DNA from: Candidatus Woesearchaeota archaeon
GTDB lineage: Archaea; Nanobdellota; Nanobdellia; Pacearchaeales; GW2011-AR1
Length of the DNA: 39,689 nucleotides
Assembly (NCBI GenBank): GCA_964462045.1
Contig: CAYWWB010000004.1
Location: 1-39,689, forward strand
Direction: 5' to 3'
The notes beneath the pieces are model-generated. The model saw nothing but the letters and a program-made list of their open reading frames with translations, was not told the origin of the DNA and did no database searches. Shown here in pieces: positions 957 to 21,756 of the stretch. The stretch's first letter is position 1. Each line of letters opens with the position of its first letter. A program made the translations under genes and the position numbers.

Positions 957-1523
957 ATGGTTAACAAAAAAAGAGCAACATTAAACATCTTAAGTGCAAT
1001 CTTGGTATTGTCTTTAGGAATGATTCTTATTCAAAATATTGGTAATGTTGATGCATATGAATCTGTTGCAAATACAACATCTCATGCAGATATTGATCAA
1101 TATTTTGCTCTTGAAATGTCTGCAAATTTAACAGATGGGATAAGATTTGGAAACATAGATGATTTAAATATTGATAATCATAATGCTTCAGGAAATTATA
1201 ATACATCAGATTTAACACAATTTTATATTTTAGTTTCAGAAGATTCAAATACAAATGTTAGTTTTCAAATAAATGCTAGTGATTTTACAAGTGGAACAGA
1301 CACATTAGGAGTTACAAATGAATCTTTTAGTAATAGTACTACCAATACTCTTAATAATCCTTCAATAGGTAATGAAACTTCACTTACAGAGGCCCTTCAA
1401 GGTGCAGGGAATGAGATTGATGTTGGAGAAAAAGTTTATTATAGATTTTGGTTAGATACTCCAAATGACCAACCAACAGGTACATATCAAAACGAAGTTT
1501 GGTTTAAAGGGTCTAGTGTTTAA
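957..1523 (+). CDS. Secreted beta-rich protein, paralog of the preceding ORF; function unknown
   Basis: ATG at 957. N-terminal signal/anchor KKRATLNILSAILVLSLGMILIQNIGNVDA. N/S/T-rich with many sequons. Shares a C-terminal strand motif with ORF 1..837. BRE/TATA at 920..934. Confidence 0.75.
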   Translation: MVNKKRATLNILSAILVLSLGMILIQNIGNVDAYESVANTTSHADIDQYFALEMSANLTDGIRFGNIDDLNIDNHNASGNYNTSDLTQFYILVSEDSNTNVSFQINASDFTSGTDTLGVTNESFSNSTTNTLNNPSIGNETSLTEALQGAGNEIDVGEKVYYRFWLDTPNDQPTGTYQNEVWFKGSSV

Positions 1524-1549
1524 AATATAAAAAAATAGAGGTGTGATTT

Positions 1550-2188
1550 ATGAAAAATAAAAATTTAAAATTTATTGTTTTATTTGCAAGTTTAATTATT
1601 TTTTCTAGTTTAGTTACTGCTGGAATTGGAATAAAAGTATCACAAGAATCTATTTTAGTTCCTGAGGGAGAAGAAGGATGTGTTACATATTATGTTTATA
1701 ATCCTTTTGATAAAGATTCTAAAGCTTCTATAAGTGTTACAAGTGAATTAAGAGATATCTTACAATATCAGGATAAAGAAACACAAATAATTCCTGCTGA
1801 AACATCTAGTGGTGAAGCTATCCCTGTTGAATTTTGTTTTCAGATTCCAAAACAAGTTTATGAAAAAGATTGTTTAGTTGGAGATATGTTATGTAAACAA
1901 GAGTGTAATATGGAAAGAAAAATATTTGAGGGTGAAGTTGTATTAAATGAAATACAGGAAGAGGGTGAAAATAATGAAGGTTCTGCAACAGCATTAACAT
2001 TAGGATATCCATTAAAAGTGGGTGTTAAATGTAAAGAACATCCAAGAGATTTAACTCCAGTGTATATTATTATTGCTGCAGTAGCTTTAATATTAATATT
2101 AATAACAACAAAAAAAGATAAAAAGAAAAAGAGTTCTTCTAGTAAATCTAGTAAAAAAAAGAAAAAATCTTCTAAAAAGAAAAAGTAA
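1550..2188 (+). CDS. Membrane-anchored surface protein with signal peptide, C-terminal TM helix and Lys/Ser-rich cytoplasmic tail
   Basis: Signal peptide LKFIVLFASLIIFSSLVTAG, C-terminal TM VYIIIAAVALILILITT, then KKDKKKKSSSSKSSKKKKKSSKKKK. A GAGGTG Shine-Dalgarno-like box lies just upstream. Confidence 0.7.
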   Translation: MKNKNLKFIVLFASLIIFSSLVTAGIGIKVSQESILVPEGEEGCVTYYVYNPFDKDSKASISVTSELRDILQYQDKETQIIPAETSSGEAIPVEFCFQIPKQVYEKDCLVGDMLCKQECNMERKIFEGEVVLNEIQEEGENNEGSATALTLGYPLKVGVKCKEHPRDLTPVYIIIAAVALILILITTKKDKKKKSSSSKSSKKKKKSSKKKK

Positions 2189-2215
2189 TAAAAACTCTTT
2201 TTGTTTAATTTTTTT

Positions 2216-5200
2216 ATGAAAATGAAAAAAAGAGTGTTGAGTATTGTTTTTGTTTTTATTGTCATAATTTCTTTAATATTTTTTATTAAGGGATTTCAAA
2301 TTTCAAATACTTCATCACATTTTACTATTTCTTTAAGTGAAGAAAGATGGGAGAATATATCTGCTCCTGAAGGCGTTTTTGAACCTTCTAATCCTTCTTT
2401 ATTTGGAACACATATAAATCATTTTGAAATTGGTTTTGTTAATTTAAGTATTAGTTCAAATGAGGTTCTTGAATGTAAAATAAAAACATCTAATAAAAAT
2501 ATTCTTACTATAAATGAAACAGGTTTATCAAAATCAAATGAAAATTATACTTTAAGTTATTCAATAAAACAAACTGATTCAATAATAAAAGATTCTAATG
2601 TGGGATACATTCCCTGGGTTTTGGAAAATTGTTCTATTATTGATTCTTCTGAAAATATTGTTGATTTTCAAAATGTTTCAAGAAGGATTTATGTTCATGA
2701 TGATGAATATTGGGAAGACAATGAAGTTACAAGAGCAGTAACTTGTGAAGGGACTCCCCATGTTTATTTTAATAATACTGGAAAATGTGAGTTTTCTGAA
2801 GACACAATGTTTGCTTTACAGATGAGAAATGGTAATCCAGTAAATGAGACTTGCTTTAATAGTCCTGGTATTGCTTGTGCAGATTCTTATTGTAATGGTA
2901 TTTATTTCCCTACTTGTGATCCTGTAGATTATTTTTCAGGATTTAGTATTGAAGAAAAAGACCCAAATAATTATGCAGAAATAACTTCTAGTTTCGCAGG
3001 ATATAGTACTCCTATAGCTTTTACAAAATATACTAATTCAAGTGGAACCTTTAAATTAAGAGTTCTTGAATCTCTTTCAAGTAAATCTTTTTCAGTAACA
3101 TTATATAATTTAACAAATGTAGATGAATCAAATACAAATATTTACGGGCCTTCTTCTTCACAAGGAGATTTATCTATAACAAATCAAGGAGATGGAACCT
3201 ACACAGTTGCATTTTACAATTTCTCAGAATATTCAGGAACTTTAGATTTTACTTTTAATATTTCTTTTACTCAAGAAGGATTAAATGATAACAGGACAAT
3301 GAAAGTAGTTATAGCTTATGGAACAGACACTAATCAAGGAGATCCAGATTATTTTATTTCTTTATTAAACGAATCTGTAGGATTGTATAATAATGATGAA
3401 GGACAGATAACAGGAATAACAACTGATACAGGAGGTGTTTGTGGAGATGAAGCTAATAATGATTTTGATTATTTAGGAACTTTTAGTGGGAATGATGTAT
3501 GGGCTTGGAGTTATGATTGTTTTGATGAAGATTGTCATTTAATGCAAGGAGACGACTCTCAAACAAATGAATTTGGTTCTGGTAAAACAGGGTTGTGTAA
3601 TTATCAAACAGAATTAAATTGTTCAGATGAATTTGATAATGATTATGATTATGTTTATGATGGAAGTTCAAATCCTGGAGGAAATTTAGATTTTACAGAT
3701 TGCCATGATGCAGATTGTTTTCATAATGGGGATGGGTTAAATACTTGCCCGACAAAAGAGTTAATATGTAATGACTCTGTCAACAATGATTGGGATTATA
3801 CTCTTGGAGAATCAGATAATTCAGGAGATATGAAAATAGAAAATAATGGGACAAAATATGATTGGACACATCAATCTGATGTAACTGATTGTGAAGATAT
3901 TGATTGTGATGGTAAAATTGGGGGAAGTTCTGGAGAATTATGTAATTGGGGATATGAATTAAATTGTTCTGATAATTTTGATAATGATGCATTACAATTA
4001 AAAGATTGTGAATTAAATTCTGTAGGAAGCTCAACAGCGCAAGTTACTCCTGCTTATGCAGAATATGATTGTAGTTCTTTTTGTAGAAGTTCTGTAGAAA
4101 ATCATGAATCAGGAACACAATGTTTTGATAATATAGATAATGATTGGGATGCTATAACAATCAATGGATATTATAATGATAATTATGCAGATTATCATGA
4201 TGGAGGAATTGATTGTAGATGGGGGGGATATTTTGGAATAGGAAATAATTATAATCCAGAAGAAGAATGTAATTTATCTCTTAATTCCAACTTAAAAAGA
4301 TGTGAGCTTGGAAGAGAATTAACATGTAATGATAAATTTGATAATGATTTTGATAAAGATGCTAGTGGGATGCCCACACCAAAATGGAATTTAAACACAA
4401 GTCTCTATTTTGAGATTTTTGGTATTACTTATACATCTCATGGGGATTATGATGATTATGATTGTGCAAAAGAAAGTATTGTTCCTTCAAATGAAGCATT
4501 AAATGATTCGTGGTGTTTTGATGGTGTGGATAATGATTTAGATGCTTATTATTTTAGTGGGAATGGATACTCTCAAAACTCTTCAGGGGGATTTGATTGT
4601 GATGATACAGATTGTTTTGGAATAATAAACCCTGCAGATGAGGATGAAGCTTGCATTGATAGTGAGTATAATGCTTCTAATCCTTTATTTACGAATCTTC
4701 CTTTTCCTGGAAGATTCTGTGCAAATAATATAGATGATGACTCAGACGGACCTATTGATTGTGATGATTTGGATTGTTATAGGCAATTTACAATGTGTTC
4801 TCAAGGGCCTTGTTATAAAAAGGAAGATATAAGATGGGATTCTTGTGCAGATTCTATTGATAATGATAATACAAACGGGACTGATTGTGCAGATTCTGAT
4901 TGTTATGGATTATTTGGTTCAGAAGAAGGAGATTTTTGTGAACAAACAGAATCTAATTGTTTAGATGGATTTGATAATGATGCTGATGGAAATGCAGATT
5001 GTGCAGATTCTGATTGTTATGGGCTTGTAGGAGATTATAGGGATGGAGAAGTTTATTGTTCTTCAAATGAAAATACTTTAGATTTGTGTTATGATGGTTT
5101 TGATAATGATGCTGACGGAGTTTATGATTGCTATGAATCTGAATGTAATAGTTATTGTGAACTTTCAGATATTTCTGGAACAAACCCGATATCATTACCA

Positions 5201-7336
5201 GTTAATTTGGGAACAACAAGTCTTAATTCAGTTTCAGATGCATATATTAAAGATTATACAAAACAAGTAAGAAAAGGAGAATATTATAATTTAACTATGA
5301 AAATGGATTCTAGTTCTAGTGATGCTCAATGGACTTTGGGAACTGCAACAGGGGGAAGTTTCCAAAAATCATATTTTGATACTGGCACTGCTCAATTACA
5401 AGGACCTAATTCAGATAATTTTACTCTAACTGAAACTTCAGTTGGTTTTACAATAGAATCAAATGAAGCAGATTTGTCTTCAGGTTATGAAATGTCTTTT
5501 GTTATTCGAGCTAATTCTGTTATGTCTCAATCTACTTATGAATTAACTTATGCAGAATCAACTGGTTCAAAATTATCTTTAAATAATGATATTTATCATG
5601 AAATAAATGAAAATGTAAACCCTGAAGCCCAAAAAATAGAAATTATTCCCAATAATACCGGGATTAATTACGGAGATTCAGTATATTTGAGAGGAAATAT
5701 CTCTGATAATAACCAATTAGGAGTATGTCAGTGGGAGGTTTATGGACAAGCTTCTTTTAGTCCTTCGGATTCAACTAATTGTAAAGCTAGTTTTAGTCCA
5801 ACACAAGAAGGGACATATTATATTAATTTAACTCCAAAAGATTATTATTCTAATGAGGGAGATACAATCACAAAAGAATATGATTTGAATATAATCCCAA
5901 CTAAAAATGAAGCAGAATTGAATCAAACTTTCTACAATTCTACAATTGATACTTTAGAATTTAATTTTAGTTTTAATGTCCCTTCTGGAGATTCTTTAGG
6001 AAATTGTGAAATAATGATGAAAAATTCAACAAATGAATATTCAATGAAAAACATCTCTGCAACAGGAAATCTTTGTCAAGGAACAATTGATATTTCTTCA
6101 ATAAATGATGGAATGTACACTTTCTTTGCAAAAGTAAATGAAACAACTGAAGGAAATTTAATTTTAAGTAAAAGTGATTCTTCATTAATTTGTTCTCAAG
6201 TTGTAAATGGAACTTGTGTTTTTGCTGATTTTAATAATAATACTTATCCGGATATTTGTGTAAAAGACACTACCCCCCCTGAAATAACTTTAATTTCTCC
6301 AAATAATGAAACCTCCACAACCTCTCCTGCTAACTTTAAATACAGTGTTACGGATTCTACTGACATAGCAAATTGTAGTTTAATTATAGACGGATCAATT
6401 TCTGAAACAGACACATACATAACTAAAGAAACAGAACAACAATTTTCAGAAACATTCTCAACTGGAACTTATTCTTGGAAAATAAATTGTACAGATGAAG
6501 TTGGAAATATTGGTGAGTCAGAAACCAGAACAATAACTGTTAAAAAACCTACAACTGGACCTGGAGGCGGTGGAAGTGATACAGGTAGAGGCGGAATAAG
6601 TGGAGGCATAGCACCTTCTGAACCATCATATGAAAGTTTTTCAATAGATAAAGAAGAAATTAGAACAAGAGCATATACTAATGAAATAAAAACAGAAATG
6701 ATAGAAATAAAAAACACTAAAGAAGAGACAATTGAATTTAAAATAGAAAGTGATACTTCATTTGCACTTTTACCAAAAAATATTACTCTTGAACCTAATG
6801 AAACCAAAATTATTCCTGTAAAATTTTACTCTCCAAACAGAATAGGAAATTATTTTGGAAGTGTAACAGTAGAATCAGAGGATGGAAAGAAAGTAATTCC
6901 AATAAAACTTTCAGTAATGGCTCCCTCACTTTTAGAAATAGATACTCGTGTTTTAGATAAAAGTAAATTAGTTACTTTTGAAAAGGAAGTTTTTGCAAAC
7001 ATAACTATAAAAAATAAAGACGATTTAAAAAAGAATATCACTTTAACATATTTCATAAGAAGAAACGCACAAGAATTTAAAAACAAAACAGAGAATATTA
7101 TGTTAAATGCTGGTGAAGAAATAAGTATTGTGAGGGGACTTCCTAAAGAAAATACTTTCTTAATTAAAAAAGATTATTTTCAAACAGAAGTAAAATATTC
7201 CAAAACAACACTACATTCAGAAGATAATTTTATAATAATTAATTGGATAACTGCAATAATCACTCTAATTGTTTTAGGTGTTTTAATTTCTCTAATTATT
7301 ATAAAAATAAAAAAGAACGAAAAAAACGAGGAATAA
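2216..7336 (+). CDS. Giant (~1700 aa) Cys/Asp-rich surface protein: signal/anchor, 11 CxDxxDNDxD...DCxDxDC modules, Ig-like domain, Gly-rich linker, C-terminal TM anchor
   Basis: One uninterrupted 5.1 kb frame. The track start at 2201 is TTG; the first ATGs are at 2216 and 2222. N-terminal hydrophobic VLSIVFVFIVIISLIFFI; C-terminal TM WITAIITLIVLGVLISLIII followed by KIKKNEKNEE. Dozens of N-x-S/T sequons. Confidence 0.9.
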   Translation: MKMKKRVLSIVFVFIVIISLIFFIKGFQISNTSSHFTISLSEERWENISAPEGVFEPSNPSLFGTHINHFEIGFVNLSISSNEVLECKIKTSNKNILTINETGLSKSNENYTLSYSIKQTDSIIKDSNVGYIPWVLENCSIIDSSENIVDFQNVSRRIYVHDDEYWEDNEVTRAVTCEGTPHVYFNNTGKCEFSEDTMFALQMRNGNPVNETCFNSPGIACADSYCNGIYFPTCDPVDYFSGFSIEEKDPNNYAEITSSFAGYSTPIAFTKYTNSSGTFKLRVLESLSSKSFSVTLYNLTNVDESNTNIYGPSSSQGDLSITNQGDGTYTVAFYNFSEYSGTLDFTFNISFTQEGLNDNRTMKVVIAYGTDTNQGDPDYFISLLNESVGLYNNDEGQITGITTDTGGVCGDEANNDFDYLGTFSGNDVWAWSYDCFDEDCHLMQGDDSQTNEFGSGKTGLCNYQTELNCSDEFDNDYDYVYDGSSNPGGNLDFTDCHDADCFHNGDGLNTCPTKELICNDSVNNDWDYTLGESDNSGDMKIENNGTKYDWTHQSDVTDCEDIDCDGKIGGSSGELCNWGYELNCSDNFDNDALQLKDCELNSVGSSTAQVTPAYAEYDCSSFCRSSVENHESGTQCFDNIDNDWDAITINGYYNDNYADYHDGGIDCRWGGYFGIGNNYNPEEECNLSLNSNLKRCELGRELTCNDKFDNDFDKDASGMPTPKWNLNTSLYFEIFGITYTSHGDYDDYDCAKESIVPSNEALNDSWCFDGVDNDLDAYYFSGNGYSQNSSGGFDCDDTDCFGIINPADEDEACIDSEYNASNPLFTNLPFPGRFCANNIDDDSDGPIDCDDLDCYRQFTMCSQGPCYKKEDIRWDSCADSIDNDNTNGTDCADSDCYGLFGSEEGDFCEQTESNCLDGFDNDADGNADCADSDCYGLVGDYRDGEVYCSSNENTLDLCYDGFDNDADGVYDCYESECNSYCELSDISGTNPISLPVNLGTTSLNSVSDAYIKDYTKQVRKGEYYNLTMKMDSSSSDAQWTLGTATGGSFQKSYFDTGTAQLQGPNSDNFTLTETSVGFTIESNEADLSSGYEMSFVIRANSVMSQSTYELTYAESTGSKLSLNNDIYHEINENVNPEAQKIEIIPNNTGINYGDSVYLRGNISDNNQLGVCQWEVYGQASFSPSDSTNCKASFSPTQEGTYYINLTPKDYYSNEGDTITKEYDLNIIPTKNEAELNQTFYNSTIDTLEFNFSFNVPSGDSLGNCEIMMKNSTNEYSMKNISATGNLCQGTIDISSINDGMYTFFAKVNETTEGNLILSKSDSSLICSQVVNGTCVFADFNNNTYPDICVKDTTPPEITLISPNNETSTTSPANFKYSVTDSTDIANCSLIIDGSISETDTYITKETEQQFSETFSTGTYSWKINCTDEVGNIGESETRTITVKKPTTGPGGGGSDTGRGGISGGIAPSEPSYESFSIDKEEIRTRAYTNEIKTEMIEIKNTKEETIEFKIESDTSFALLPKNITLEPNETKIIPVKFYSPNRIGNYFGSVTVESEDGKKVIPIKLSVMAPSLLEIDTRVLDKSKLVTFEKEVFANITIKNKDDLKKNITLTYFIRRNAQEFKNKTENIMLNAGEEISIVRGLPKENTFLIKKDYFQTEVKYSKTTLHSEDNFIIINWITAIITLIVLGVLISLIIIKIKKNEKNEE
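3440..5158 (+). repeat. Intragenic array of about 11 Cys/Asp-rich metal-binding-like modules (thrombospondin type 3 / MopE-like DNDxDG motif)
   Basis: Module cores read from the translation: CGDEANNDFDY, CSDEFDNDYDY, CNDSVNNDWDY, CSDNFDNDALQ, CFDNIDNDWDA, CNDKFDNDFDK, CFDGVDNDLDA, CANNIDDDSDG, CADSIDNDNTNG, CLDGFDNDADG, CYDGFDNDADG. Most are followed by DCxDxDC. A 26-nt perfect DNA repeat gattgtgcagattctgattgttatgg occurs at 4883..4908 and 4997..5022. Confidence 0.8.
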
Positions 7337-13123: not shown

Positions 13124-13522
13124 ATGAAATATGAATTTGCTCCGGATTTGCAAACACTTGCAGAAGAAATTTGTTTATTATTATTTCCTCACATAAAAAT
13201 AACAAAAATAAAATGTTTTAGAAGTTATGGGAGTTCTACAAAAAGGACAATTGCAAGATGCCATACTTTGGGAAAGATAATGCAAATGGCTATAGGGGTT
13301 GAAGCATATTATGCAATAGAAGTTCTTTCTGAAAAATTTGATAAGCTTTCTGAAAAAGACAAAGTGAAAACAATAATTCATGAGTTAATGCATATACCAA
13401 AAGCTTTTGGGGGTGGATTCAGACATCATGACTGGGTTACTAATAAAAATGTAAATAAGATGTATAAAACTTACAAAGCTAAAAAAGAAGAAAGAAAAAA
13501 GATAAATAATTGGTTTCAATAA
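13124..13522 (+). CDS. Predicted small Zn-metallopeptidase (HExxH; SprT/COG4900-like)
   Basis: HELMH motif in IIHELMHIPKAFGGGFRHHD, with basic N- and C-terminal parts. Confidence 0.6.
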   Translation: MKYEFAPDLQTLAEEICLLLFPHIKITKIKCFRSYGSSTKRTIARCHTLGKIMQMAIGVEAYYAIEVLSEKFDKLSEKDKVKTIIHELMHIPKAFGGGFRHHDWVTNKNVNKMYKTYKAKKEERKKINNWFQ

Positions 13523-15748: not shown

Positions 15749-16081
15749 ATGAAATCTAAAGACATTAAAGGGATAATGCATGATTTGCTTGATTTAAGAA
15801 ATTGGAGGAATCCTCTTCAGATGGTTTCAATTCCAAATAAAATTGAACTAGATTTGATTACTGGGGAAGGAAATTGGGATGAAGAAGATAGTTTAACTGA
15901 ACTATTAGAAGAAAAAAGAGGGTGGTTTTTAGATAGAATAAAATCTCTAAAAGGAGATATAAAGGATTTTCAAAAAGCTAAAATTATTGTTTTTGTAGCT
16001 AAAGAAAAAGTAAAAATTAAATATAAAGGAAAAGAATTTGAGAAAGAAAGAGTTCTTGATCCTTGGTTATCTCAAGTTTAA
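15749..16081 (+). CDS. Hypothetical 110-aa protein directly abutting the radical SAM gene
   Basis: The stop TAA at 16079..16081 is immediately followed by the ATG at 16082. No Cys and no recognisable domain. Confidence 0.55.
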   Translation: MKSKDIKGIMHDLLDLRNWRNPLQMVSIPNKIELDLITGEGNWDEEDSLTELLEEKRGWFLDRIKSLKGDIKDFQKAKIIVFVAKEKVKIKYKGKEFEKERVLDPWLSQV

Positions 16082-17185
16082 ATGTATTACCACATTATTT
16101 TAACAGAAAGATGTAATTCACAATGTAGGTATTGTTATGAGAAGTCTTTGAAAGAATTTGATAATTCTCTTTCTGAAAAATGGGAATTTGAATTTGATGT
16201 TCCAAGTGAGACTGAAGTTTCTGTTGAAAAATTAAAGAATTTTATAAAAAAAGACGATGTAATTATATTTTATGGTGGAGAACCTTTATTAAAAATTAAG
16301 AAGATTAAAGAAATTATGGATGCTTTTCCTGAAAATAGATTTTGTATGCAAACAAACGGGAAATTATTGAATAAGATTTCTTCAGAATATCTAAATAAGA
16401 TGTCAAAAATTTTAGTTTCTATTGACGGAGACAAGGAAAGAACAGACTTTAACCGAGGCAAAGGAACTTATAATTTAGTTATGAAGAACCTTGATTTTAT
16501 TAGAGAAAACGGTTTTGAAGGAGAGATTGTTGCAAGGATGACTTTGGATAATGAAATTGGAAGTGATATTTATGAACAAGTTAAACATTTAATTGAAACA
16601 AAAAAATTTGATTCTTTTCATTGGCAAATAGATGCTGGTTTTTATGAGTTTGATTTTGATTATGGGAAAATAAAAATATTTGTTGAAGAATATAATAAAA
16701 GCATAACAAAACTTGTTAATTATTGGGTAGAAAACATAAAAAGGGGAAGGGTTTTGAAAATATATCCTTTTTTAGGAATATTTGAAAGCTTGTACTTTGG
16801 AAAGAAAACAAAATTGAGATGTGGAGCAGGTTATGCAAATTATACTATTACAACTAATGGAAAAATTGTTGCTTGTCCGATTATGAATAATATTAAGAAT
16901 TTCCAGTGTGGGAATTTGGATTCTAATGAGCTTAAAGATATTAATGTTATTGAGCCTTGCAGTTCTTGTGAATATTTAGATATTTGTGGGGGAAGATGTC
17001 TTTATAGTAATTATGCAAAACTCTGGCCTAAAGAAGGGCAAGAGCTAATTTGTAAAACAATAATTCATTTAATTAATTCTATAAAAGAAAAAATTCCTGA
17101 AATAAAAACAGCTTTAGATAAAGATATTATAAAAATAGAAGATTTTGATTATGAAAAATATTTTGGTCCTGAGATTATTCCTTAG
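16082..17185 (+). CDS. Radical SAM enzyme with C-terminal SPASM domain (peptide/protein-modifying maturase-like)
   Basis: CNSQCRYC (CxxxCxxC) at residues 11-18. GGEPLL. Complete SPASM signature: CGAGYANYTITTNGKIVAC, then CSSCEYLDICGGRC (CX2CX5CX3C). Confidence 0.88.
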   Translation: MYYHIILTERCNSQCRYCYEKSLKEFDNSLSEKWEFEFDVPSETEVSVEKLKNFIKKDDVIIFYGGEPLLKIKKIKEIMDAFPENRFCMQTNGKLLNKISSEYLNKMSKILVSIDGDKERTDFNRGKGTYNLVMKNLDFIRENGFEGEIVARMTLDNEIGSDIYEQVKHLIETKKFDSFHWQIDAGFYEFDFDYGKIKIFVEEYNKSITKLVNYWVENIKRGRVLKIYPFLGIFESLYFGKKTKLRCGAGYANYTITTNGKIVACPIMNNIKNFQCGNLDSNELKDINVIEPCSSCEYLDICGGRCLYSNYAKLWPKEGQELICKTIIHLINSIKEKIPEIKTALDKDIIKIEDFDYEKYFGPEIIP

Positions 17186-17507
17186 TTTTATAATCACTTT
17201 TTAATCTTTTTACAACATATTTAACATGGCTTGAAACTGTTTTTCTGTAACGAGATTCAGCAGTTGAATTGTCTGTATGCCATTTCGCATCTTCTAGTTT
17301 TGAAAAAGCCCTATTAATATTTCTTCTTACATTTTTATTTTTTAACATATAATCTGGAATTTTAGAAAAATATTCTTCTGCTTTATCATAAATTGAATTT
17401 AACCAGGTTTTATTTAATCCACGATGTATTAAATTAGTATTAGATAAATAAATTAAATTCCCATAAGCTTCTGTTGCTTTAGTTTTTTGAAATCTTTTTT
17501 TATTCAT
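17175..17507 (-). CDS. Hypothetical small helical protein (last gene of a 4-gene minus-strand operon)
   Basis: Start lies 1 nt after the stop of the upstream gene. Basic and helical. No motif recognised. Confidence 0.55.
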   Translation of the reverse strand: MNKKRFQKTKATEAYGNLIYLSNTNLIHRGLNKTWLNSIYDKAEEYFSKIPDYMLKNKNVRRNINRAFSKLEDAKWHTDNSTAESRYRKTVSSHVKYVVKRLKSDYKTKE

Positions 17508-17508
17508 T

Positions 17509-17793
17509 TTAACCTATATTAACATCTCCTCTCGGAGCATTTTCGCTCATATATTCTATTTTAGATAAAGAATTTTTTAATGCTGTTTCTAATTGTGAAG
17601 AAACTGTGTCTATATTTTCCTGTATTTCAGAATCTCTAAACTGCCTTGGAATCTGTTTTTTGTATTCATTGAATCTCTCTATATTTGATTCTACAAAAAT
17701 TCTTTTTTCTTGAGAAGAAGAATCATATTTATCTTTTAATTGCATTAAATTTTGATATGCTTTTATTGCATCTGTTATTTCGTAATTTTTCAT
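17509..17793 (-). CDS. Hypothetical small helical protein
   Basis: Lies 16 nt downstream of the Ig-repeat gene. Charged helical composition. Confidence 0.55.
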   Translation of the reverse strand: MKNYEITDAIKAYQNLMQLKDKYDSSSQEKRIFVESNIERFNEYKKQIPRQFRDSEIQENIDTVSSQLETALKNSLSKIEYMSENAPRGDVNIG

Positions 17794-17809
17794 TTTAAAA
17801 AATAAAAAA

Positions 17810-18961
17810 CTAATAAGGAGCTTCAGCTCCGAAAAGTTCCCAAAGCCAGTTTATGAATCTTTGAAACCAATTAAGTTCCCTATCATCTTCTGATACATCT
17901 ACTTCTGTTGTCTTTGGTTCGTATTGTTTTTTGTAAATTTTATGTTCATAACTTTCTTCTTCATCATCTTCATCATCTTCTGAAAGACTTGGATTGATTT
18001 TGAAATCTACACTTTTATTATTTTCATTACCATTTGAATCAGTTGCATAAATTGTTAATGTGTAATTTCCTTTATCTAATACTATTGAATCATCATATGA
18101 ACTAACAAATCCAGCAGTCAAAGATCTTCTTGAAATTCTTTGAGTACCATTTAATTCATATTCTAATTCTGCTGATTCATCTGTAGATATAGTTATGTTT
18201 ATTTGATTAACTTCATATTCTTCTCCATCTATTGGTGAATCAATTGTAATTTCTGGAGCAGTTGTATCAACATCTGGTAATGTATTTACTGTAAATGTAA
18301 CACTATCACTTCCTTCATTTCCATTAACATCAGTTGCATAAACTGTTAAAGAGTTTGAACCTTCTTGAGTAGTTATTGTAAAAGGACTATTACACCCTGA
18401 AATTGTTTGTCTGCTTCCACCATTAAGAACATATTCACAAGTATCTATTCCTTCATTATCAGTAGCATCAAACCCAACTGTAACATCAGTTGAATCTAAT
18501 GTTTCTCCATTACTTGGAGAATTTATTGTTACTTGAGGAGCTTCATTATCTTCTCCTTTTACTGTTAAAGATAATTCGTTTGATATAGATGTTGAACCAT
18601 CTTTTAATTCTACATATAAAGTTAGTGTATGTTCTCCTACAGAAGTTGTTTTTCCTATAGTAACATCATTTTGATAATATAAAGAACCCCCTGCAGCAGA
18701 ATTTTGTTCAAACCCTGAATTCCATGTTCTAACTGGAGTTCCGTCTATCCTTAATGAAACTTCTTTTATTTCAGAAACATCATATGTAAGAACTTCAAAA
18801 TCTACTTGAGTGTTTTTTCCTTCAGTTATAGTTCCTGAAAATCCTGAATCATATTGTAAGTTAGTGTCTATATTAGCAGCTTGAATAAATCCTAAAGAGA
18901 TAACTAAAGCTAAGAAAATCATTAATACTCTTCCAGCCTTATTAAAATTATTTTGTGTCAT
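17810..18961 (-). CDS. Secreted protein with tandem Ig-like domains, acidic linker and amphipathic Trp-rich C-terminus
   Basis: Signal peptide RVLMIFLALVISLGFIQA. Repeats APQVTINSPSNGETL...TVYATDVNGNEGSDSVTFTVN and APEITIDSPIDGEEY...TIYATDSNGNENNKSVDFKIN resemble PPEITLISPNNE...CTDEVGNIGESETRTITV of the giant protein. C-terminus NWFQRFINWLWELFG. Confidence 0.8.
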   Translation of the reverse strand: MTQNNFNKAGRVLMIFLALVISLGFIQAANIDTNLQYDSGFSGTITEGKNTQVDFEVLTYDVSEIKEVSLRIDGTPVRTWNSGFEQNSAAGGSLYYQNDVTIGKTTSVGEHTLTLYVELKDGSTSISNELSLTVKGEDNEAPQVTINSPSNGETLDSTDVTVGFDATDNEGIDTCEYVLNGGSRQTISGCNSPFTITTQEGSNSLTVYATDVNGNEGSDSVTFTVNTLPDVDTTAPEITIDSPIDGEEYEVNQINITISTDESAELEYELNGTQRISRRSLTAGFVSSYDDSIVLDKGNYTLTIYATDSNGNENNKSVDFKINPSLSEDDEDDEEESYEHKIYKKQYEPKTTEVDVSEDDRELNWFQRFINWLWELFGAEAPY

Positions 18962-18962
18962 T

Positions 18963-20411
18963 TTATCTGTTTAAATACCAATTTATTCCTAAACCATATT
19001 TAAAATCTCCAGATTTGCTTTTTTCTCCAAGCCCGGTTTCATATTTTACATTTCCTTCTACTGAAAAACTACTATTATCTTTTCCAGGAAAATACTCTAT
19101 TCCTGCAGAACCTGTAAAAGTAACTTCTTTTCCTAAATTTTTAATATAATTATCTCCTTCTCCATTACCTATCTCAAGTCTTGTTGAATCAACCACATTT
19201 CCATTTGCGTCTTCTGATATTATGTCTGTTGATATCTCCCCTTCATATTGTTGTTTAACATTTCTATAAGTCAATCCAACTTTTCCCTCCAATCCAAAAC
19301 TGTTTGAAATCATTCCGTTAAAACTAATTCCTGCTCCCCATTCATAATTTTGATACATAGGAGTTTTAGTAACATCTTTATTAGTTATAGCATATCTAGT
19401 TGTATCTCCTTCTTTATATAGAGGTTCTTTTTCTTGTTGAAGACTTTCATTTGTAGGTTTTCCTAAATTCCATGTATTATTTTGGTTCCCTATATTATAT
19501 GATATAAAAGGCCCTATTGAAAGATTTTCACTTCCAAATCCCAATGTAAAAGAAGCTTGTCCATAAAGATTGTCTCCAGCTACTACCCCATCAACATCTA
19601 ATTTTGGTTGGAACCAGCTTAAATCAAAATTCCTATTTCCACTTCTCTTCTTACTTTTATCATCATAAGGAGAATAAAAATTATCTTCTTCTACTTCAAC
19701 AATTCCTTGAACTTCACCAGTTGTAGGTTCTATTAAGTCATATTTTTTGGGATAATCTGAGTTTAAAATTCCTTCAAGATTTCCTCTTGATTTTTCTTTA
19801 TCAACTTTCCATCCCCAAATTTCATCAGTTTGAACATAATAGTTTTCTCTGTTGTCTGTTACACCAATTTCTTGAACATCATCTTTGTATGCCCAAACAA
19901 CATTTTGTTTTTCTCCATTTCCTGAAGGTTGGTGAAAATAATAAACTGTATCATTTATTCCGTCACTTCCTTTTATAACGAGTGTCTTAAATAAATTTGA
20001 GAAATCTTTTGTTTTAATTTCTAATTTATCTCCTTGAAAATCTAAGTTTTTTGTATCATATTGAGGAGTAGCATCTTCTGGTTTTTTTGCAAATTGACCA
20101 GAATTATTTAATATAATTCTATTTCCTTCAATTTCATAAGGAGAAAATACAACACTAGGTTTATTACCATTCATTTTACTAACAGGATATTTTTCAATTC
20201 CCAAAGGATTATCTCTTGATTCTTTAATTTCTTTAAAAGCGTAAACAGTTCCATGTTCCATGATAGCTTCTTGAGTTTCACTACTTCCCACAGAACCAGA
20301 TTGAGTAAAATCAACATCTTGAGCTTTAACATTAGGTGATAAAGCTGTAAGAGCTGCTAATCCTAAACCTCCTAAAAGGCTTTTGAATTTGTTTGTTTTT
20401 TTGTTTGTCAT
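18963..20411 (-). CDS. Secreted 482-aa protein whose C-terminal half looks like a transmembrane beta-barrel (OMP-like)
   Basis: Signal peptide FKSLLGGLGLAALTALSPNVKA/QD. C-terminal half has alternating Gly/aromatic-rich strands: YGQASFTLGFGSENLSIGPFISYNIG, YEWGAGISFNGMISNSFGLEGKVGLTYRN, VTFTGSAGIEYFPGKDNSSFSVEGNVKYETG, and terminal FKYGLGINWYLNR. Confidence 0.75.
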   Translation of the reverse strand: MTNKKTNKFKSLLGGLGLAALTALSPNVKAQDVDFTQSGSVGSSETQEAIMEHGTVYAFKEIKESRDNPLGIEKYPVSKMNGNKPSVVFSPYEIEGNRIILNNSGQFAKKPEDATPQYDTKNLDFQGDKLEIKTKDFSNLFKTLVIKGSDGINDTVYYFHQPSGNGEKQNVVWAYKDDVQEIGVTDNRENYYVQTDEIWGWKVDKEKSRGNLEGILNSDYPKKYDLIEPTTGEVQGIVEVEEDNFYSPYDDKSKKRSGNRNFDLSWFQPKLDVDGVVAGDNLYGQASFTLGFGSENLSIGPFISYNIGNQNNTWNLGKPTNESLQQEKEPLYKEGDTTRYAITNKDVTKTPMYQNYEWGAGISFNGMISNSFGLEGKVGLTYRNVKQQYEGEISTDIISEDANGNVVDSTRLEIGNGEGDNYIKNLGKEVTFTGSAGIEYFPGKDNSSFSVEGNVKYETGLGEKSKSGDFKYGLGINWYLNR

Positions 20412-20726
20412 TTTTATTGTTTTTTTGAATTTTTTAATCTTTATAAACCTTTTGGTTTGTTGTTATTGAAAGGTTTAAACACTTTTGTGTTATTGTAAAA
20501 TAGTTAATTACAACTACTTTATAAATTTTTCGGTTTTTAACTATGATTAAGTAAAAACAAAATTTCAGAGTTTTTTCGAATATAAAAATATTTGTATTAT
20601 TTAAGATATGTGTTTTTGTCGTCAATAAAAAAATAAAAAGAAAGATAAATTCATTGGGTGTCATCAGGAAATCAAAAAAAGGAAAACATTTTCTGGAAGG
20701 GTTGTTTTGTAGTATATTAATTAGGG

Positions 20727-20916
20727 GGTTCTCGTTTCATTTGGATTTCTTTTAGGAAATACGGATGAATGGAAATCTCTGATTTACTTTTTGTCTAATC
20801 TTTTTTTGAAAAAGATCTTCATGGTAGGTTCTCGTTTCATTTGGATTTCTTTTAGGAAATACGGATGAATGGAAATCTCTGATTTACTTTTTGTCTAATC
20901 TTTTTTTGAAAAAGAT
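20727..20916. repeat. Two perfect 90-bp direct copies (20727..20816, 20827..20916) separated by a 10-nt spacer
   Basis: ggttctcgtttcatttggatttcttttaggaaatacggatgaatggaaatctctgatttactttttgtctaatctttttttgaaaaagat occurs twice with a period of exactly 100 nt. Each copy ends in the palindrome atcttttt..aaaaagat. Confidence 0.95.
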
Positions 20917-20930
20917 TATTTGAAAGATAC

Positions 20931-20949
20931 ATGCGCGAGCCGGGATTCG
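20931..20949 (-). other. Orphan 19-nt copy of the tRNA-Gly 3' end (T-loop to discriminator, plus 1 nt); att-like scar
   Basis: atgcgcgagccgggattcg at 20931..20949 is identical to 21036..21054 in the intact tRNA-Gly, in the same orientation, 87 nt downstream of the gene. Confidence 0.85.
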
Positions 20950-21036
20950 TGCGAAAAGCAAGTTTTCGCGTCATTCGCTAAAATCAAAGATTTTATCAAA
21001 TGAAACTCCGTTCGAATCCCCTATTTTTTTGCAGAA

Positions 21037-21107
21037 TGCGCGAGCCGGGATTCGAACCCGGGCCACATCGTTGGCAACGACGCATTCTACCACTGAACTA
21101 CTCACGC
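21037..21107 (-). tRNA. tRNA-Gly(GCC)
   Basis: Minus strand reads GCGTGAG-TA-GTTC-AGTGGTA-GAAT-G-CGTCG-TTGCCAA-CGATG-TGGC-CCGGG-TTCGAAT-CCCGG-CTCGCGC-A. Full cloverleaf, anticodon GCC, no encoded CCA, no intron. Confidence 0.95.
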
Positions 21108-21126: not shown

Positions 21127-21756
21127 TTATTTGGTTTTTTTAAAATATTCTAATAAAGAAATATATGTCTTAGGATTTTTAGAATGTAATTCTCCTTTGT
21201 CCCAAGGGATATTAGATGTTTTTAAAATTCCATCTGCATTTACATTTCTTATTAATGTATTATAATTACTAATGTTTTCTTTTGTTAAAAAATATGCTGA
21301 ACCTTTAACCCCTTTTGGAATTTCTGCTAAATAAACTTGTATTTTTTTGTCATGCAAGTCATTTACAATATTTTGAAGTGATTTTTTTATTTTATAATCT
21401 GGTGCCCACCTACTATTAGTTCCTTCAAAAAGAATAATCTTATTTGAATTTACTTTTTTTAATTCAGAAATTACACTAGGCAATTCATTTTCAATATTAA
21501 AAATTGTTCTTCCCTCATATGAAAATTTATCGCAGTTTTCACACCCCATCATATCTGAATTAGTGATATCACTATCTTCAATAATAATATTTTCTAATTT
21601 TTGGTTGTTTTTTGTTAAATAATTATTCAAAGCAACTATATGTGAATTTCCAAGAACAACAGCGGGTGAGATTTTTTTTGTTTGTTGAGAATGTAAATTA
21701 TAATTAATACCTAGTGTCAAGGTTAATGCGAGCAGTGTGTTTGCTATCTTTCCCAT
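21127..21756 (-). CDS. Secreted 209-aa protein (weak SGNH/GDSL-hydrolase-like resemblance) lying between two tRNA genes
   Basis: Signal peptide MGKIANTLLALTLTLGINYNLHS. VVLGNSHIV and ILFEGTNS are loosely reminiscent of SGNH blocks I and III. The ATG is 2 nt after the tRNA-Val 3' end; the stop is 19 nt before the tRNA-Gly 5' end. Confidence 0.65.
   Translation of the reverse strand: MGKIANTLLALTLTLGINYNLHSQQTKKISPAVVLGNSHIVALNNYLTKNNQKLENIIIEDSDITNSDMMGCENCDKFSYEGRTIFNIENELPSVISELKKVNSNKIILFEGTNSRWAPDYKIKKSLQNIVNDLHDKKIQVYLAEIPKGVKGSAYFLTKENISNYNTLIRNVNADGILKTSNIPWDKGELHSKNPKTYISLLEYFKKTK

Follow-up and report, generated by a model that had tools for sequence, protein, structure and literature searches.

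A mosaic, putative surface-protein cassette of two genes in Woesearchaeota couples a predicted outer-membrane-type β-barrel domain to an immunoglobulin-like repeat protein

INTRODUCTION

How does a protein with the look of a bacterial outer-membrane β-barrel come to be encoded in an archaeon, and what might it do there? The question is raised by a locus in a member of Candidatus Woesearchaeota, a group of tiny archaea that probably depend on hosts (assembly GCA_964462045.1, contig CAYWWB010000004.1, positions 1 to 39,689; this whole stretch of 39,689 nucleotides is the window referred to below). Four open reading frames (ORFs) follow one another there on the minus strand: gene 1 (20411..18963, 482 amino acids), gene 2 (18961..17810, 383 amino acids), gene 3 (17793..17509, 94 amino acids) and gene 4 (17507..17175, 110 amino acids). 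Gene 1 is putatively exported: behind a signal peptide it has two domains, an N-domain that is conserved and a C-domain predicted to form a β-barrel. Gene 2 appears to be an exported stalk of immunoglobulin (Ig)-like repeats, with its own signal peptide, about four Ig-like domains, an acidic linker and a Trp-rich C-terminal tail. The molecular understanding of partner recognition and contact structures in DPANN archaea is poor (PMC11329633, PMC6349945). Here we report that genes 1 and 2 are the conserved core of a cassette whose copy in the window is a recombinant mosaic, and we discuss whether the pair could act as a strain-specific contact module.

A HYPERVARIABLE BLOCK CROSSES THE GENE 1-GENE 2 JUNCTION

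In the window cassette, the barrel domain of gene 1 and the first Ig-like domain of gene 2 (Ig1) travel together as a hypervariable block of about 1.07 kb (18587..19661, minus strand), which runs from the barrel domain of gene 1 across the junction of the two genes to the signal peptide and Ig1 of gene 2. Compared with the homologous locus L001, the flanking proteins are 88-97% identical, gene 1 is 45% identical and gene 2 is 53% identical, and locus L006 gives a similar picture; over the relatives overall, the flanking genes are 79-97% identical. Taken domain by domain (L001 and L006, respectively), identity is 65% and 78% in the gene 1 N-domain, drops to 28% and 25% in the gene 1 C-domain and to 24% and 28% in Ig1, and then rises through Ig2 (47% and 74%) and Ig3 (73% and 88%) to the gene 2 tail (98% and 86%). 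The borders of the block are sharp. In a sliding comparison with L006 (25-residue windows), identity is 56-92% over gene 1 residues 1-250, 12-40% over gene 1 residues 251-482 together with gene 2 residues 1-125, and 68-96% over the rest of gene 2 past residue 125.

The block is closest to two otherwise distant cassettes, L013 (39% and 44%) and L014 (31% and 35%). When 11 loci were clustered, the gene 1 C-domain and gene 2 Ig1 fell into identical groups, with the window joined to L013 and L014, L001 to L006, L004 to L009, L012 to L017 and L020, and L016 standing alone; the C-terminus of gene 2 clusters the window with L001 and L006 instead. Because the block groups with the distant loci and the gene 2 C-terminus with the close ones, the cassette is a recombinant mosaic. 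Modules have clearly been exchanged here at a surface-protein locus between genomes whose proteins are otherwise about 90% identical. This finding stands on its own; it is the most informative feature of the locus and one that the initial annotation lacks.

GENES 1 AND 2 ARE THE CONSERVED CORE

A gene 1 homologue lies directly upstream of an Ig-repeat partner in all seven of the seven homologous loci. The partners are 379-1162 amino acids long and either lie 1-2 nt from the gene 1 relative or overlap it; given this spacing, the two are made together. In the L013 cassette (1094-5869), gene 1 is reduced to the barrel domain (P0006, 286 amino acids). The Ig partner there has 1162 amino acids, additional He_PIG and Big_9 domains and a tail that has diverged further (RNFFIKFIEFLARLFGIN); a secreted Cys/Asp-rich protein is encoded next. 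A reciprocal scan of metagenomes with only the tail motif of gene 2 retrieved six more loci, and wherever upstream sequence was available (4/4) a signal-peptide protein of about 430-530 amino acids, ending in amphipathic strands, lies directly upstream. The Trp-rich tail is thus a searchable marker, which retrieves cassettes whose barrel-like genes are too divergent for sequence search: the A2 and A3 hidden Markov models (HMMs) miss the upstream proteins of L016, L017, L018 and L020. Protein P0008 bridges these upstream proteins to the gene 1 family, because its N-domain is homologous to that of gene 1 (E 6e-16) and its C-domain to the upstream proteins of the tail-motif loci (E 1e-16 to 5e-27). 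Three of these positional analogues score just below the cut-offs of bacterial outer-membrane protein (OMP) families: P0008 for OmpA_membrane (PF01389; 20.5 bits against 21), L017_up for OmpW (PF03922; 16.5 bits) and OMP_b-brl (PF13505), and L016_up for OmpW (17.8 bits). An hhalign match of 98.8% probability between the type A and type B C-domains was rejected as circular because P0008 was shared by both alignments; without it in both, the comparison gave E 0.048 at 1% probability or E 0.0027 at 11% probability.

The gene 1 family is rare. Gene 1 has no Pfam, NCBIfam or PHROG match, and a word-indexed search of 5.8 billion proteins recovered four homologues (P0002-P0005, 37-53% identity). Searched exhaustively with HMMER, 1.84 billion representatives yielded five relatives, which brought in three further and more distant ones, P0006, P0007 and P0008. 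P0006 is a signal sequence with the C-domain alone, P0007 has a gene 1-type C-domain in common, and P0008 has only the gene 1-type N-domain, fused to a different C-domain. As P0006 and P0007 share the one part and P0008 only the other, gene 1 is built of two separable modules. We found no relatives of gene 1 or of the gene 2 tail in bacteria or in the phage, plasmid and IMG/VR collections; where marker genes are present, the homologous contexts are of Woesearchaeota type or archaeal, with no bacterial context among them. As judged from these searches, the pair is lineage-specific and restricted to one Woesearchaeota lineage. In the literature that we found there was no description of the gene 1 family, the gene 2 tail motif or the mosaic, no report of an OMP-type barrel in Woesearchaeota and no report of a second membrane in this group.

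GENE 1 ENDS IN A PREDICTED EIGHT-STRANDED β-BARREL

The N-terminus of gene 1, MTNKKTNKFKSLLGGLGLAALTALSPNVKA followed by QD, has a basic n-region, a hydrophobic core and a conserved AxA-like site. Residues 1-30 (20322..20411, minus strand) can be read as a cleavable signal peptide, as the initial annotation had proposed, with predicted cleavage between VKA and QD; a (N/K)AQ(D/N)(I/V)DFT motif after the hydrophobic core is kept in P0002-P0005. No part of the protein is better conserved than the N-domain (residues 31-250; 19662..20321, minus strand), which has many invariant alignment columns and the motifs NPLGIEKYP and DFSNLFKTLVIKGSDGxNDTxYYxH. The AlphaFold2 model of full-length gene 1 has a pLDDT (predicted local distance difference test) of 52, and of less than 50 in the N-domain part, and the full-length alignment, run as a profile against PDB sequences, gave nothing significant for this domain.

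The C-domain (residues 266-482; 18966..19616, minus strand) is predicted to form an amphipathic, eight-stranded barrel of OmpX/OmpA-like type and ends in ...FKYGLGINWYLNR. Modeled on its own (AlphaFold2, residues 255-482, alignment of 8 sequences), it is an all-β meander with a mean pLDDT of 79.5 and a predicted template modeling score (pTM) of 0.69. The strand count of eight comes from the DSSP string of the predicted model read together with the sequence. Each strand has 11-16 residues with about six alternating large hydrophobics. Over the eight strands and 8 family members, large hydrophobics fill 56-75% of the positions in one phase compared to 5-33% in the other, and this dyad alternation is kept in the family even at 20-25% identity. 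The eight strands thus have the alternating hydrophobics expected of lipid-facing membrane strands, and the amphipathic strands first noticed in the C-terminal half of the protein are both strictly alternating and conserved. Two long polar β-hairpin extensions, which lack the alternation, fall at the L2 and L3 positions of the OmpA/OmpX topology and, in the predicted topology, on the side opposite the termini.

Structure comparison points the same way. With either model, the top 50 Foldseek matches in the PDB were bacterial outer-membrane barrels only. In BFVD, all 25 matches at E <= 0.001 were phage-encoded OMP-type barrels or unnamed proteins, and the confident matches (probability >= 0.89) were all outer-membrane barrels, with a few unrelated proteins of low probability further down. 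The best target-normalized template modeling scores (TM-scores) of the C-domain were to eight-stranded barrels: OprF-N (0.58), Ail (0.51) and OmpX (0.48). Neither the PDB top 50 nor the 25 BFVD matches included a β-sandwich, a jelly roll or a soluble barrel (lipocalin, avidin or fatty-acid-binding protein [FABP]), and pore-forming-toxin structures were absent from the PDB top 50 for either model and from the confident BFVD matches. The resemblance to a bacterial outer-membrane barrel is therefore upheld as a prediction, and the sandwich or jelly roll that the initial annotation had named as the outcome that would speak against it is not the fold predicted. Barrels with eight strands, as in OmpA and OmpX, serve as anchors and do not form pores, and by analogy the predicted barrel of gene 1 is more likely to be an anchor than a pore. 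OMP-type barrels are regarded as distinctive of the outer membranes of bacteria, mitochondria and plastids; an archaeal one, if true, would raise the questions of how it is assembled without the barrel-assembly machinery (BAM) and in which membrane it sits.

GENE 2 COMBINES AN IG-LIKE STALK WITH A TRP-RICH TAIL

Gene 2 belongs with the bacterial Ig-like domain proteins (Big_7 and relatives). It matches Big_7 (PF17957) in two stretches (E 3.8e-14, 53.5 bits against a cut-off of 24.1), as well as Glucodextran_B (33.8 bits, cut-off 27) and Y_Y_Y (31.1 bits, cut-off 26.6), with further Big_13- and NEW3-like matches. Because Y_Y_Y-, Big_13- and NEW3-like matches add to the Big_7 stretches, we count about four Ig-like domains, and not the two of the initial annotation. 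The same annotation took them to be of one type with the Ig-like domains of a giant protein in the window; BLASTP gives this a weak footing, with a match to residues 1344-1447 of the giant protein at E 4e-4. The giant protein (2201-7336, plus strand) has 1711 amino acids, with an N-terminal hydrophobic segment, 60 cysteines and 46 N-x-S/T sequons.

The C-terminal module of gene 2 (residues 327-383; 17813..17983, minus strand) consists of the acidic linker, the motif YEHKIYKKQYEPK and an amphipathic helix, LNWFQRFINWLWELFGAEAPY (17813-17875, minus strand), at the C-terminal end, and it is conserved in 11 of 11 gene 2 homologues. The end that the partners share, some 47 amino acids long, runs from a YEHKIYKKQYxPK-like motif through an acidic stretch to the helix LNW(W/F)Q(R/K)FINWLxxLFGxExxY. 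A Trp-rich amphipathic C-terminus had been noticed at the outset, and the numbers bear it out: the helical moment of the tail is 1.6-2.1 compared to a strand moment of 0.3-0.7, and its Wimley-White interfacial sum of -6.67 kcal/mol lies in the lowest 0.08% of window-encoded 16-mers. As its mean Kyte-Doolittle hydropathy is only 0.17, the helix is not a transmembrane segment, and it should lie in a membrane interface. No NCBIfam CTERM model for an archaeal C-terminal sorting signal (PGF-CTERM/archaeosortase) matches gene 2, which ends in acidic and aromatic residues (...FGAEAPY) and not in a transmembrane helix with a basic cluster. The giant protein of the same window does end in a classical transmembrane helix followed by KKNEKNEE, so that the tail of gene 2 represents a distinct mode of attachment.

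A FIXED CHROMOSOMAL SITE AND ITS NEIGHBORS

The cassette occupies a fixed chromosomal site among housekeeping genes. Its surroundings are the same in the window, L001, L006, L012 and L020: a divergent nucleotidyltransferase gene (about 600 amino acids) comes first, then tRNA-Val, a small ORF, tRNA-Gly and the two-gene cassette, and last a radical SAM gene in convergent orientation. The window carries archaeal markers (an archaeal Kae1 equivalog and a TIGR04084 radical SAM/SPASM protein from NCBIfam, ribosomal L35Ae and L10e, and a TrmB regulator), related contigs carry the title Candidatus Woesearchaeota, and the G+C content of the cassette region (about 0.26-0.31) is the same as that of its surroundings. 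A chimera with bacterial DNA, which the initial annotation had named as another outcome that would speak against its reading, is ruled out because the same gene order in an archaeal context is found in independent assemblies. Some 32 nt before the ATG of gene 1, a TATA-like box can be read in the sequence (TTTATAAA; 20440..20447, minus strand). It may serve as an archaeal promoter, in which case the mRNA would be nearly leaderless.

Of the proposed four-gene operon, the arrangement stands: the ORF list gives the same four minus-strand frames, with gaps of 1, 16 and 1 nt. Genes 1 and 2 always come as a pair; genes 3 and 4 are confined to close relatives, some of which have another gene in the gene 3 position. 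Gene 3 is small and helical, gene 4 small, basic and helical (net charge +14); both lack a signal peptide and a hydrophobic segment, and neither has a Pfam, NCBIfam or PHROG match. They are weak paralogues (BLASTP, 27% identity over 71 amino acids, E 3e-5). Gene 4 orthologues in L001 and L006 are 74-75% identical, L004 has one gene 3/4-like gene and L009 has none of this type. In L001 and L006, the closest relatives, an unrelated protein of 79 amino acids with two transmembrane segments stands where gene 3 would be (L001 10622-10861, L006 5462-5701), so the slot after gene 2 is itself variable. A T6-A-T6 run sits between genes 2 and 3, and the 3' end of gene 4 overlaps the convergent radical SAM gene by 11 nt. 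Genes 3 and 4 are cytoplasmic accessories outside the core, possibly chaperone- or regulator-like.

Several other features of the neighborhood deserve mention. The spacer between tRNA-Gly(gcc) and gene 1 is 620 bp long and has integration- or excision-like features at 20727-21054. An exact 19-bp copy of the 3' end of tRNA-Gly (CGAATCCCGGCTCGCGCAT) lies at 20931-20949 (the tRNA's own copy is at 21036-21054; none is expected by chance), and directly after it comes a perfect 100-bp tandem duplication (20727-20916, 1.9 copies). Together they look like an integration or excision scar at a tRNA gene; the att-like 19-bp repeat encloses only 87 bp, with the cassette outside it. Just upstream of the cassette, between tRNA-Val and tRNA-Gly, lies a 209-amino-acid ORF (21127-21756, minus strand) with a signal-peptide-like N-terminus. 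Its counterparts in L001 and L006 show 80-82% conservation, and Pfam, NCBIfam and PHROG gave no match to it. On the other side (15749-17185, plus strand), a 110-amino-acid ORF without a family match abuts the TIGR04084 radical SAM/SPASM gene at its start. No protein of the neighborhood is better conserved than the product of this ORF (97% identity to L001), which suggests that it may be a precursor or partner of the maturase-like enzyme. A 132-amino-acid protein (13124-13522, plus strand) matches Pfam PhageMetallopep (E 2e-20); next to a LigD-type primase-polymerase gene, it is kept at the same position in L001 (15086-15481). Beside the L004 cassette (5619-6889), two adjoining genes carry bacterial-type Sigma70 region 2 and region 4 (extracytoplasmic function-like) Pfam domains. 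Sigma factors are unexpected in an archaeon, and the contig, part of a Woesearchaeota metagenome-assembled genome, is otherwise archaeal in context (L35Ae, L10e and thermosome).

A POSSIBLE STRAIN-SPECIFIC CONTACT MODULE

We consider the cassette best read as a Sec-exported, two-protein surface module through which the cell makes strain-specific contact with, or adheres to, a partner cell or a surface, and would give this reading a probability of roughly 0.5. We regard the ORFs, their pairing, the mosaic, the properties of the tail and the archaeal setting as shown, and the barrel fold as predicted; that the two proteins form a complex, insert into a membrane (their own cell's or a partner's) and serve this role is what we infer. 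Genes 1 and 2 would be made together and exported through Sec to the cell surface, where gene 1 would contribute its N-domain and a C-terminal, eight-stranded barrel of the OmpX/OmpA/Ail type with a protruding β-sheet, and gene 2 an Ig-like stalk whose Trp-rich helix lies in the membrane interface. Because the barrel domain and Ig1 are exchanged as one block while the rest is conserved, Ig1 most likely pairs with the barrel domain in a complex of the two proteins. The barrel and the Trp helix would then be its two membrane-associating elements, and the variable block could set specificity or evade viruses and host defenses. A bolder form, which we hold to be improbable, would have the barrel insert into the membrane of the partner, with the matched Ig1 and the Trp-anchored stalk as a tether and the exchangeable block setting host specificity. 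If true, this would be the first transmembrane β-barrel in Archaea, assembled without BAM, and a new kind of intercellular tether. A two-gene cassette with a specificity block would suit heterologous expression, although there are no cultured Woesearchaeota.

A number of observations weigh against a surface module with a membrane barrel. The co-variation of the barrel domain and Ig1 could reflect mere adjacency in the DNA, with one recombination tract covering both, and the equivalence of the type A and type B C-domains seems to be architectural and is not demonstrated homology. The model rests on a shallow alignment of 8 sequences, and we hold the eight-stranded OMP-like barrel, whose closure is putative, with moderate confidence; the query-normalized TM-scores are low (<=0.39 in the PDB and <=0.42 in BFVD), with root-mean-square deviations of 9-29 Å. 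Gene 1 of the window, whole or as the C-domain, matched no Pfam or NCBIfam family even at E <= 10, so the HMM check against OMP_b-brl, porin and pore-forming-toxin families that had been proposed for it came out negative, which leaves the protein unassigned to any bacterial OMP family. Among PDB sequences, the C-domain and type-B alignments found only non-significant profile matches, to a soluble FABP (E 0.43) and to a lipase (E 0.56). The C-terminal aromatic β-signal is not present, the last strand being followed by 2-9 polar or basic residues. C-termini in the family read ...NWYLNR, ...YYFNR, ...WYPFRR, ...INGNKSGGRR, ...INNKQK and ...INNKE, and only the type-B proteins L017_up and L020_up end in F. 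Finally, we know of no barrel-assembly machinery in archaea and of no second membrane in Woesearchaeota, and none of the roughly 29 larger ORFs scanned in the window has an Omp85/BamA-like domain.

Alternatively, the C-domain could be a soluble β-rich domain, an open sheet or a soluble barrel with a hydrophobic interior, which AlphaFold2 and Foldseek draw into an OMP-like geometry, and the pair an ordinary secreted or surface adhesin that has a variable tip and is held on the cell by the amphipathic tail of gene 2. The shallow alignment, modest TM-scores and unverified closure leave room for this, as do the missing OMP match of the window protein, the missing β-signal, a soluble FABP as the only, non-significant, match to it among PDB sequences, and hypervariability over the whole domain, which is more typical of exposed soluble domains. 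Soluble barrels and sandwiches are abundant in the PDB, though, and none came up in the structure searches; the alternating hydrophobics of eight strands are conserved even at 20-25% identity, three independent positional analogues come near to the OmpA, OmpW and OMP_b-brl thresholds, and we find a soluble domain doubtful, if a serious rival. If the barrel is a membrane barrel, it could instead sit, after Sec export, in the cell's own cytoplasmic membrane or in an undescribed outer layer or second membrane and scaffold a coat of Ig stalks, S-layer-like or bounding a pseudo-periplasm, with no part in contact to a partner cell. Such a self-anchoring component would fit two proteins that have a signal peptide and no other anchor, the anchor role of OmpA/OmpX barrels, long loops opposite the termini as in self-inserted OMPs, and a fixed locus among housekeeping genes. 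It is unlikely nonetheless, though likewise a serious rival: to our knowledge no β-barrel occurs in any cytoplasmic membrane, the literature is without a transmembrane β-barrel or second membrane in Woesearchaeota, and one would not look for the greatest variability of the locus in a purely structural anchor.

The initial annotation had offered a secreted pore or contact apparatus acting on a host membrane as a speculative reading. An offensive role, in which copies of the β-meander join into an oligomeric pore or a lipid-trapping chamber in the host membrane, after the fashion of β-pore-forming toxins or PopA, and so open a conduit for metabolite or lipid uptake, seems very unlikely to us. 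DPANN archaea do depend on hosts for lipids and metabolites (PMC6349945), a predator outer-membrane barrel, PopA, is reported to be able to act on prey inner membranes (PMC12228718), and the gene 2 tail is strongly interface-active. The predicted unit, by contrast, resembles a small closed eight-stranded barrel without a channel, its long polar far-side loops would need to cross the target membrane, and neither Pfam at E <= 10 nor Foldseek returned a fold or family of the β-barrel pore-forming toxins (aerolysin, haemolysin/leukocidin, MACPF/CDC). As to origin, the initial annotation had offered horizontal acquisition from bacteria, and one may think of a recent gain of a bacterial OMP gene or of a virus or mobile cassette at tRNA-Gly. 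The fold type is otherwise bacterial, the 19-bp tRNA copy and the 100-bp duplication lie between tRNA and gene 1, and a phage-metallopeptidase-like gene lies elsewhere in the window. We judge acquisition to be extremely improbable all the same, and the proposal to be unsupported, because there is neither an OMP HMM match nor a bacterial homologue among the 1.84 billion representatives, and the contexts are archaeal. A viral, plasmid or mobile origin was likewise rejected for lack of a match to gene 1 or the tail in the phage, plasmid and IMG/VR collections or in PHROG. The att-like repeat encloses 87 bp and not the cassette, whose G+C content does not differ from its surroundings and which is found at the same locus in distant members of the lineage.

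RELATION TO KNOWN SYSTEMS

The surface contact module proposed here has partial counterparts in several known systems, and we rate the gene 1 C-domain and gene 2 as being of the OMP-like anchor and Ig-repeat adhesin kinds, respectively, within a family that is itself undescribed in the literature found. The closest architectural likeness of the predicted C-domain is to OmpX, Ail/Lom, the N-domains of OmpA and OprF, NspA and OmpW (clan MBB), with which it would share an all-antiparallel meander of eight dyad-amphipathic strands, short turns on the side of the termini and long loops opposite them and, with OmpX in particular, a protruding sheet. The differences are considerable. Gene 1 has no significant sequence match to the OmpX/Ail/OmpA class, lacks the aromatic β-signal and comes from an archaeon without a known outer membrane or BAM; moreover, its barrel is C-terminal to a 220-amino-acid domain, coupled to an Ig stalk and hypervariable.

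Inverse autotransporters (intimin/invasin, type Ve) serve in adhesion between cells and are likewise made of a β-barrel that anchors them, a stalk of Big domains and a distal binding end that varies; the invasin β-domain (4e1t) was among the Foldseek matches. They are, however, single polypeptides with a 12-stranded barrel through which a linker is threaded, whereas here there are two coupled proteins with eight predicted strands, a TM-score of about 0.25 to 4e1t and no sequence relation. A wider relation to type V secretion finds no footing either: TM-scores to EspP, BrkA, invasin and CdiB are 0.11-0.26, about eight strands are predicted, and no Pfam match to Autotransporter, POTRA or ShlB came up. 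PopA of Bdellovibrio bacteriovorus and the lipid-trapping OMPs offer a precedent for an OMP acting on the membrane of another cell, and the same paper mentions a possible distant relative in the DPANN Altiarchaeales; as described there, PopA is a pentameric bowl, and no similarity to it was found for gene 1 (PMC12228718).

For the tail of gene 2, the nearest likeness is to Trp-rich membrane-proximal helices such as the membrane-proximal external region of HIV-1 gp41, which are short, amphipathic and rich in Trp and Phe, partition strongly into the interface and sit next to the membrane. The local resemblance, NWF...NWLW, is off by one residue in its spacing, and the gene 2 helix stands at the extreme C-terminus with no transmembrane segment after it, so the likeness would be convergent. 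In biological terms, the cassette may be compared with the surface proteins that diversity-generating retroelements (DGRs) diversify in Woesearchaeota and Pacearchaeota, which are likewise lineage-specific, rapidly diversifying and exported and are credited with a role in attachment between cells (PMC6349945). No reverse transcriptase or template repeat was seen beside the cassette, although no systematic search was made for them. The mode of diversification also differs: DGRs mutagenize the tip of a lectin fold, whereas here a whole block of about 1 kb, spanning two domains, is exchanged.

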